Shown piece by piece: positions 1,377 to 3,821 of a DNA stretch of 64,000 nucleotides; position 1 is the stretch's first letter; every line of letters starts with the position of its first letter. Origin of the DNA: Chrysomallon squamiferum (taxonomy: Eukaryota > Animalia > Mollusca); contig CM022670.1 of the NCBI GenBank assembly GCA_012295275.1, forward strand, positions 13,206,001-13,270,000, given 5' to 3'. A program made the position numbers and the translations under genes. The notes under the pieces are model-generated. The model was not told where the DNA came from, searched no databases, and saw only the letters and a list, made by a program, of their open reading frames with translations.

Positions 1377-2271
1377 TCTTTCCATCTATCTTTAATTAGC
1401 TATCTATGTATCTATCTATCTGTATGTCTGTCTGTCTGTGTCTATCTCAGTATCCAACTATATGCAAAAGCATAATAATTATAACAACCACATACAAAAA
1501 AAAAAAAAAAAAAAAAAAAACCCCAAAACTGGCAAGTACAACACTTCTTTACATGCAGTTCAAAACTGTTTTCTCCAACGATTATTCACGTACTCAAATC
1601 ATCGCCGGCGGTAGAGATAATTTTTGTCCAAATTAACTTTTGTTTGACAGACGACTGTCAGCACGGACGTTTGCCATATACAACCGCCGTTTCATCTCTC
1701 ACATCAACTGTTTTCCGAGCTCATCCCGGCCTCAGTGTTTTGTTTGGTGCTCCCCTCTAACAGTCACTTCTGTTGACGCTGCTGCTTGCGAAAACAAAAT
1801 CATTTGTTCATTTTCACTTCATTATCTCACACGCATGCACCTCCGATGCATTTATCATGTGTTTATTTATAGAAGTGTACGTTTTTAGCGATCTCAACAG
1901 GCTATTTCTACTGCGCTAAGTAGAAAATAGAAAAGCATAATATTTACCTGAGAGTAAGTGGGGTTTTTTTTTGGAAGTAGGTTAACATATTCACAATATA
2001 TCTGCTCTGATTAGCCTAACATAATCGTGACTATTATTTTTAAAGAAACTCTACACTAACTGAAAGAACAATTAGTTTGAAATATAAATAGCACAACACA
2101 TTACAATGAAGAAAAAATAAATAATGATAAAAATAAATAAAACAATAAAATGTGGAGGTCACAAATAAGGAAATAATCTGGTATTTGTTATGAATATAGA
2201 ATGGATAGGTTCGAGAACAAGTACTTACATAAGAAAACGCGATCCCAAGCCCGGCTAGCTCAGTCGGTAGA

Positions 2272-3060
2272 TCACTTCCAGATGAATGGAAAAGTTCTAT
2301 TAACAGAAATGCTAAAAAATTAACTTCTAATAAAGATTTATTTTTGTTTCAGAATAATGAAATGATAAATGTCAGTAAATTTACAGCTAAAATAATTTAT
2401 TCTATTTTAATTTTAAAAAACTTTAAAGCACCAACTTGTGAAGAAAAATGGAATGAGCTTGGTTTTAATATATTCTGGAGACCAGTTTGGAAATGGATAC
2501 ACTATAGTGATAAATTTACTGAATTTATAGACTTAGATTTTAGAATAGTTCATCATATAATATATACATATAACAAATTATATAAATATGGTAAAATCTC
2601 ATCTAGTATATGTCCAGTGTGTTTGAAGGATGATGAAGATTTGTGCCATTTATTTTTGTATTGTGAAGAATTGAAGGAATTAATATCAATCTTTCATGAA
2701 ATATGTATTTATATATTTAAGAAAACAGGGTTTTCTCTAGAACAATTAAAAAGATTATTAATATTTGGATGTTATCTCAAAATTGAAAATAGTACAATAG
2801 AATTTATTAATATTATTCTTTCAATTTATAGAATAACAGTGTTCAAAAGGCGTGTAATAGCTCAAATGAAAGGAACAAATATCAATATAATACATTTTTT
2901 TAGAAATTATATGTATCAGGGCTTTAAAATCATTCTAAATCAATATCGTATTCAAAACAAACTTTCAATTTTTATTAACAAATATGTTAAGAACAATATT
3001 TTCCTAGAACTAAAAGATGACATACTTATTTTCAAATATCCTTTGGAAAGCTACAAATAA
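2272..3060 (+). CDS. Partial ORF2 C-terminal region (zf-RVT-like zinc-binding domain) of an L1/Tx1-type retrotransposon
   Basis: The frame is open from the 5' junction (SLPDEWKSSINRN...) to the stop at 3060, 262 codons. It has KW...W..VW and FRIVHHII motifs and CPVCLKDDEDLCHLFLYC (CX2CX8HX4C), typical of L1/Tx1 ORF2 ends. Confidence 0.85.
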   Translation, partial: SLPDEWKSSINRNAKKLTSNKDLFLFQNNEMINVSKFTAKIIYSILILKNFKAPTCEEKWNELGFNIFWRPVWKWIHYSDKFTEFIDLDFRIVHHIIYTYNKLYKYGKISSSICPVCLKDDEDLCHLFLYCEELKELISIFHEICIYIFKKTGFSLEQLKRLLIFGCYLKIENSTIEFINIILSIYRITVFKRRVIAQMKGTNINIIHFFRNYMYQGFKIILNQYRIQNKLSIFINKYVKNNIFLELKDDILIFKYPLESYK

Positions 3061-3287
3061 TCAATATAGATAAATCATGGAAATGGATAAAAGAATTAAT
3101 ACTATAAAATACTGTAAATATATATGAATATTCCGAATAAATAAGTATGCATGCATGTGAGTGTGAATGAGTGTGACTGAGTGTGTGAGAGGAAATAGTT
3201 TTTGTTATTGTTATTTACAGCTGTAATGTTATTTTAATTGTGTACAACTAGTGATTATACTAATAAAGATAAAAAAAAAAAAAAAAA
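2272..3287 (+). mobile_element. 5'-truncated non-LTR retrotransposon (L1/Tx1-like) inserted in tRNA-Lys
   Basis: Contains the ORF2 C-terminus with a CCHC knuckle, a ~210-bp 3' UTR with GTGAATGAGTGTGA-like repeats, AATAAA at 3262-3267 and an A17 tail at 3271-3287 abutting the tRNA 3' part. Confidence 0.9.
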
Positions 3288-3821
3288 GCACGAGACTCTT
3301 AATCTCGGGGTCGTGGGTTCGAGCCCCACGTTGGGCTATACGTATATATTTTTTACTTTTACGTATTTAAGTTATATAATAAGTAAATAAATAAATAATA
3401 ATAATAAAGAAAATATAAGAATGGCCATAGCTTACTACGAATGTTTATCTCTGCATGATATGAATAATAAAAATAATATCTTCTTGAGTCTAATGACTTT
3501 AAAACACACTGCAAAGCTCTTGTGTATTTTGGACCAGACAGAGATAATGAGTATCTGACAGCAATAACGTCTTTCATTCATGTAAAATATCTATTTCAGG
3601 CAACACAAAATGTCCTACTCTGAATCGCAAAAAATTAAACGACCTCATTTGTCTGCAGATAAAAATAACTGTCACAATTAAATAGAATGAAGCAGTACTA
3701 CGGTCAGTGATGCAATGAATAAATGAATAAGTTCTGTTCCAGTCAGCAAACCGAAAGTTTGAATTTAAAATGTACTGTTAAAGAGAAATTCATTGTATAA
3801 TCTATAAAGTTTTTATTATTA

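Follow-up and report, generated by a model that had tools for sequence, protein, structure and literature searches.

An APE-type LINE copy within a tRNA-Lys gene of Chrysomallon squamiferum and a candidate lineage targeting the D arm of tRNA genes

A lineage of APE-type LINEs, likely of the Tx1 clade, very probably inserts into tRNA genes by sequence-specific nicking of the D arm on its 3′ side (nucleotides 21–24). One such copy splits a tRNA-Lys(CTT) gene in the stretch of Chrysomallon squamiferum DNA analysed here (hereafter the window; 64,000 nt of CM022670.1, positions 13,206,001–13,270,000 of the forward strand, free of N, about 31% GC and rich in simple repeats). An initial annotation of the window had proposed a sequence-specific, tRNA-targeting family. 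This proposal is supported by relatives in other assemblies, whose 3′ junctions lie at G22, two bases upstream of the one in the window; the tRNA specificity of the window's own family, with one junction in this genome, we infer from these relatives.

The interrupted gene is cut between nucleotides 23 and 24 by an insert of 1016 bp (2272–3287; 23% GC). When joined, the two tRNA halves give 73 nt with one mismatch to the intact copy at 4788–4860. These coordinates and the joined halves agree with the initial annotation, which had described a tRNA-Lys cut into nucleotides 1–23 and 24–73 by a LINE end in the same orientation, with AATAAA and an A17 tail, and the four uninterrupted tRNA-Lys(CTT) copies that it had used to define the empty site were found nearby (Table 1). 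Position 73 is T in the split gene and in the copies at 664, 4788 and 10962, and G in the copy at 11937; position 4 is T in the intact genes at 664, 4788 and 10962.

Table 1. Features of the split tRNA-Lys gene, its insert and the intact tRNA-Lys genes of the window
Feature	Position	Strand	Remarks
tRNA-Lys(CTT) 5′ part, nt 1–23	2249..2271	+	A box; last base target or element
LINE ORF2 C-terminus, 5′-truncated	2272..3060	+	open 2272–3057, 262 aa; stop 3058–3060
CCHC zinc knuckle CX2CX8HX4C, intact	2611..2664	+	
3′ UTR, 210 nt	3061..3270	+	AATAAA at 3262–3267
poly(A) tail, A17	3271..3287	+	final A possibly tRNA A23
tRNA-Lys(CTT) 3′ part, nt 24–73	3288..3337	+	B box; T6 run at 3349–3354
intact tRNA-Lys(CTT)	664..736	−	reference for empty site
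intact tRNA-Lys(CTT)	4788..4860	+	reference for empty site
intact tRNA-Lys(CTT)	10962..11034	+	reference for empty site
intact tRNA-Lys(CTT)	11937..12009	+	reference for empty site

The cut had been placed precisely between A23 and G24. This site is right to within one nucleotide, and its precision is one of several equal readings, as either end of the insert can be shifted by one A. A longer copy in a contig of run X8 (see below) matches already from 2271, so that the A at this position may be the element's own, and A23 of the tRNA may be hidden in the poly(A) tail. At this junction, a blunt insertion looks the same as one with a 1-bp duplication, and the target site duplication in the window thus amounts to 0–1 bp.

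Within the window (both strands), a B-box motif follows within 70 nt at only one of 108 runs of at least eight A, namely the tail in the split gene, and the tRNA junction is therefore not a matter of chance. A SINE head was ruled out as the source of the tRNA sequence, since the target is the sequence of the four intact genes with a T run at its end. A separate tRNA-like A-box stretch at 28936–28953 (− strand), which passes into (CA)n repeats, may be the head of a SINE. As to the host genes of the window, the tRNA-Lys copies surround the first of at least three clustered, intron-bearing genes of the beta-lactamase fold (PF00144, DUF3471; 6839–8652 on the + strand, 17345–21825 and 25134–30226 on the − strand). 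The named matches of a 690-codon exon at 40453–42525 (+ strand) are gastropod, one of them Rho guanine nucleotide exchange factor 17-like, and an exon neighbouring the insert has its best named match in Lottia gigantea (48%), followed by Bulinus, Aplysia and Elysia. A further exon belongs to an Atlas cluster made up mainly of molluscs. By these matches, the host is likely a gastropod from the sea.

The insert is a young, 5′-truncated LINE copy, with a reading frame that is open from the first insert base. The zf-RVT match of this frame is weak (E 8e-4, below the cut-off), and over 246 aa the frame is 59% identical to residues 1036–1281 of a full APE-RT protein, P0001. This protein of 1281 aa contains Exo_endo_phos, RVT_1 and zf-RVT, with all APE and RT motifs present, and its best PDB match is human L1 ORF2p (E 5e-88). 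Of the features of an APE-type LINE of the L1 group, the window element has the CCHC part and P0001 has APE, RT and zf-RVT; AATAAA followed by poly(A), 5′ truncation and the lack of LTRs were all found in the window element. Compared with the nearest locus, L082, over 130 codons, the window frame showed a pN of 0.25 against a pS of 0.67 (uncorrected values), from which we conclude that it evolved under selection. The last ten bases of the 3′ UTR are the same in the window element and in two more distant loci, L003 and L004. No second copy of the element was found within the 64-kb window.

We placed the element by means of two trees. An IQ-TREE analysis of ORF2, using 39 sequences (a subset of 63) that included Keno-like U2 and U5 elements as anchors and no named Tx1 or L1 reference, united the window fragment with P0001 and P0002 (SH-aLRT 100), and this group with the L001–L004 proteins and the Mytilus edulis protein P0017 in one clade (SH-aLRT 99.7). 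U2, U5 and non-specific elements fell outside this tRNA clade; the U2- and U5-targeting elements found here are 30–35% identical to P0001. An RT-only FastTree comprised 180 sequences; here two subgroups, united by a weak node (0.24), took in about 70 (our own count) of the 120 best protein clusters. Both trees were built from sequences other than named Tx1 or L1 references, and the element is a likely, rather than a certain, member of the Tx1 clade.

The endonuclease domain was compared with known structures. The hairpin of P0001 and L082 has 11 residues, like that of Tx1L, and aligned without gaps on the Tx1L loop graft 2v0r, an L1 endonuclease bearing the hairpin of Tx1L, on which the endonuclease scored 77.6 bits, versus 68.8 bits on the wild-type L1 endonuclease. 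All five tRNA-flanked relatives have the 11-residue hairpin, but so do sister clades of unknown target; the readable U2 and U5 elements have a nine-residue hairpin, as does L1. According to the loop-grafting work, the hairpin alone does not determine the target (PMC1950540). In ORF1, the Pfam zf-CCHC domain was detected in two of five relatives, above the cut-off in L001 and weakly in L005, and was not found in L002, L003 or L004; the window copy, being truncated, lacks this part.

Relatives were collected with a 19-sequence alignment, giving 103 loci. Of these, 80 are the best among 441 matches in metagenomes, and 23 lie in host DNA within bacterial bins. Eight of the 103, L001–L005 and L081–L083, belong to the clade by tree or identity and represent about three assemblies besides the window. 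To assess the 3′ flanks, we searched them with a profile built from eight intact tRNAs found in these loci and excluded loci without a recognisable poly(A) end; it replaced an earlier B-box pattern that had missed L004 and given a false match in L047. All three in-clade loci with a poly(A) 3′ end (L082, L003 and L004) had a tRNA-profile match in the 3′ flank, versus none of the 37 ends outside the clade (31 distinct flanks). The prediction that poly(A) ends would be followed by the equivalent D-arm position of a tRNA was thus borne out in relatives from other assemblies.

In each of the three loci the 3′ junction lies at G22 of the tRNA. L082, which is 97% identical to P0001, sits in a tandem tRNA-Asp(GTC) array on a 36-kb contig, whose size suggests long reads and which contains 35 (34 + 1) intact Asp genes. 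Its poly(A) leads directly into tRNA-Asp from G22; at its other, truncated end the element is joined to nucleotide 10 of the same array unit, the insertion having removed 11 nt of the target. In L003 (39%), A10 leads into an intron-bearing tRNA-Tyr, and in L004 (38%), A10 leads into a tRNA-Thr. The latter was read by eye from the anticodon loop, as ARAGORN misfolded the L004 join and, with a lowered threshold, gave mostly false calls.

The 5′ ends were more varied. The 5′ end of L002 carries nucleotides 1–33 of a tRNA-Gln and that of L003 nucleotides 5–38 of a tRNA-Lys(TTT), both 100% identical to intact genes. The two ends of L003 thus represent different isotypes, Lys(TTT) at the 5′ end and Tyr at the 3′ end, probably a result of collapsed copies. 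A weak match (14.5 bits, E 0.44) to tRNA positions 1–28 precedes L001, which we take to be a probable Ser. No tRNA piece was found at the contig 5′ ends of L004 and L081; L005 begins just behind a complete tRNA-Gln of a Gln array, without a clean junction, and L083 has no flank. In the five cases with a 5′ junction, it lies at nucleotide 10, 23, 28, about 33–34 or 38. The pieces reaching nucleotides 28–38 in the full-length L001–L003 would fit duplications of 7–17 bp, although in none of these copies do the two ends fall within a single gene. The suspicion that the target range extends beyond Lys was borne out in these relatives, the 3′ ends of the relatives being Asp, Tyr and Thr and their 5′ ends Gln, Lys-TTT, Asp and probable Ser.

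None of the 80 pattern matches among viral_contigs encodes a relative, a tail-motif scan gave one match, by chance, and a further 400 genomes from the phylum of G001 gave no match. G005–G009 contained distant elements only, together with one decayed, in-clade-like piece with uninformative flanks.

The ends outside the clade include five U2 and five U5 junctions, of Keno-like and U5-type elements. In L097–L103 (G008:C7), a tandem array of U5 snRNA genes contains several copies of one LINE family, all inserted at the identical position of the gene. At least three distinct LINE branches (L085, L088, L089 (G004), L091 and L094) have their ends in U2 genes, at the site used by Keno; those of G004 lie within a U1-U2-5S repeat unit, where other elements end at U1 gene starts. 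The out-of-clade LINE of L100 (4561–10682) has a Dewa-like spacer target: it stops five bases short of the 5′ side of a tRNA-Gln gene that belongs to a Gln/Gly array, and a repeat of about 255 nt flanks it on either side. L081–L103 show that several bacterial genome bins of GTDB contain DNA of animal hosts, complete with LINEs and arrays of RNA genes.

The two-base offset of the window's 3′ junction from G22 can be read in two ways. A plain alternative is that a G22-to-A change or a homopolymer error occurred, which would make the window junction a canonical G22. When the last A of each tail is assigned to the target, the window (Lys) and L082 (Asp) share the context G^AGYAY, located at nucleotide 22 in Lys genes and at nucleotide 20 in Asp and Gly genes, and the context of L003 (Tyr) and L004 (Thr) is GGT^AGAGCG. 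With two cases per context, it is a more speculative reading that the subfamily of the window and L082 recognises a sequence, G^AGYAY, and not a set place in the tRNA, so that the cut in Asp would fall at 21/22 and that in Lys two bases later.

Sequencing-run contigs gave some indication of further copies. Contigs of run X3 over the insert include a near-identical sequence (359 nt, one difference) at a depth of 2806, as well as pieces of about 82–90% similarity at depths of 80–300, depth not being equal to copy number. A contig from the RNA library X8, where presence is no proof of transcription, matches 2271–2501 with two differences and extends 657 nt further upstream. These contigs cover the insert up to its last 26 bases, the flanks lying outside that cover, a gap that carries no weight because the contig records are filtered; they hint that tens of young copies, plus longer elements, may exist in the same organism. 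Some X3 and X8 contigs skip parts of the element (2401–2969, 2495–2593 and 2515–2895), with a 567-nt gap occurring in both DNA and RNA runs, and possibly represent internally deleted, non-autonomous derivatives. Pieces from organisms B and C (301 nt, three differences, depth 3; 191 nt, no difference, depth 3.3) were set aside, as they may be carry-over.

A tRNA-specific lineage could also be guided by polymerase III factors, its endonuclease picking only the local site. Such guidance would suit the use of isotypes that differ in D-arm sequence (Asp, Lys, Tyr, Thr, Gln and probably Ser), the orientation, which is always the same, and the precedent of Dictyostelium TRE5-A as outlined in PMC3706591. 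However, factor-guided elements described in that source land away from the gene and not inside it, the 3′ junctions in four cases lie within two bases of each other, and the Tx1L endonuclease is reported to nick its target almost exclusively by itself (PMC1950540). We therefore regard guidance of this kind as improbable.

Still less probable is that the window's family has no strict specificity, either lost or never possessed, and that a chance event or a loose preference brought the copy into the tRNA gene. It is true that this genome offers one junction only, two bases off those of the relatives, and that the apparent tens of near-identical copies and the diverged subfamilies are maybe beyond what strict targeting would need. 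Yet tRNA genes make up 0.57% of the window, itself tRNA-rich, and the nearest flanked relative and two more distant ones are all inserted in the same arm. That the tRNA pieces stem from template switching to tRNA transcripts or from misassembly, and are not remnants of the target, we consider highly improbable in spite of the short metagenome contigs of L001–L005, the two isotypes joined in L003 and the small-RNA/LINE template-switch chimeras noted in PMC4494074, because template switching adds RNA only at the 5′ end, yet tRNA 3′ parts come after the poly(A), the 5′ pieces of L003 and L082 run on into the upstream DNA of the array unit itself, the window halves complement each other exactly with a T run at the end, and both junctions of L082 are spanned by its contig of suggested long-read origin.

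Sequence-specific nicking in the D arm, our preferred reading, can be set against the known target-specific elements. Among the targets described for Tx1 elements are Tx1D, U2, U5, 5S, microsatellites, satellites and transposons, with Dewa in a tRNA-Leu spacer (PMC4494074, PMC3706591, PMC12719977, PMC4640811, PMC8869645, PMC1950540); families named in these accounts include Tx1L (Tx1D), Keno (U2), Mutsu (5S), Dewa and Kibi/Koshi (PMC4494074, PMC3706591). The lineage resembles Tx1-clade LINEs in its APE-RT-CCHC ORF2, the ORF1 CCHC of two of five relatives (weak in one), the poly(A) tail, and the combination of a fixed 3′ junction with a variable 5′ junction in a multicopy target, and differs in having a target within the tRNA coding sequence and in several isotypes. 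Published accounts place Dewa in the spacer, with the genes left whole (PMC3706591), and membership of that family was ruled out because here the gene itself is split, the Dewa target being taken from this description and not from sequence. Keno membership was ruled out by the tRNA flank and by the separate branches of the U2-flanked L085, L088, L091 and L094. In its way of working the element is likely a counterpart of Keno or Mutsu that has another target. One proposal takes a family to be target-specific when more than 20% of its flanks fall in one repeat type (PMC4494074); in the lineage, tRNA genes follow all three 3′ ends of relatives and the one in the window, above this share, and the window's own family has one known junction.

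Insertion inside tRNA genes has been described for RLE-type elements, namely LIN15_SM (tRNA-Arg) and LIN25_SM (tRNA-Glu) of planaria and NeSL-1_TV (tRNA-Pro) (PMC4640811). By our own count from that source, LIN15_SM has its 3′ boundary at G24, as the window copy does, and this in four isoacceptors of tRNA-Arg. These three elements are NeSL-related and encode a restriction-like endonuclease, whereas the tRNA lineage has APE; membership of the LIN15_SM/NeSL-related group was ruled out by the N-terminal APE of the relatives. With such different enzymes, a shared G24 site would be convergent, like the U2 site that Keno has in common with Utopia.

Dada DNA transposons (Dada-tK, -tD and -tY, among others) likewise have tRNA targets, including Lys, Asp and Tyr, and their related families are described as targeting similar sequences across isotypes (PMC8869645). 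Unlike the lineage, they use a DDE enzyme, have no reverse transcriptase, and make 6–7 bp duplications at nucleotides 8–13 or near the anticodon (PMC8869645). TRE5-A of Dictyostelium is a non-LTR element tied to tRNA genes as well, but is described as landing near the gene via host-factor binding and leaving it intact (PMC3706591). In the literature searched, which did not extend to Repbase and Dfam, no insertion of an APE-type or Tx1 element within a tRNA gene came to light. Insertion into tRNA genes is not new for non-LTR elements overall, the case not found in print in these sources being that of an APE element, and there is an appreciable, if lesser, chance that a family with a tRNA-gene target has already been deposited in a repeat database.

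By analogy with the biochemistry of L1, Tx1L and R2, a full-length master copy would supply the ORF2 protein, the endonuclease would nick the non-coding strand just 3′ of the A box, and the free 3′ end would prime reverse transcription on the poly(A) tail (TPRT). Priming at the nick on poly(A) would result in a fixed 3′ junction and a same-strand orientation. Synthesis of the window copy would have ended early, with joining at a 1-nt microhomology, and events of this kind would make the 5′ junction variable. The insertion separates the A box from the B box, and the split tRNA gene is likely dead. Such silencing would come at a small cost if the gene is multicopy; the window contains four intact Lys copies, and the L082 contig the 35 Asp copies.

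As a broader and more tentative reading, which we hold to be almost an even call, an undescribed, old and widespread APE LINE lineage may have specialised on the tRNA D arm, radiated by isotype (G^AGYAY in Asp and Lys; GGT^AGAGCG in Tyr and Thr) and converged on the LIN15_SM site. This lineage would comprise about 70 protein clusters of 38–67% identity, Mytilus members included. If this is true, tRNA coding sequences would join the targets of APE-type site-specific LINEs, and the D arm would be, next to the U2 site of Keno and Utopia, the second known site in a small-RNA gene on which endonucleases of two types have converged. With dozens of intact ORF2 and targets that differ by a few letters between isotypes, a change of APE specificity is directly testable; the lineage would provide a natural series for mapping endonuclease residues onto target letters, and it offers enzymes directed at a conserved multicopy site. 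Some of the 'half tRNA' pseudogenes of mollusc genomes would then be scars of insertion.
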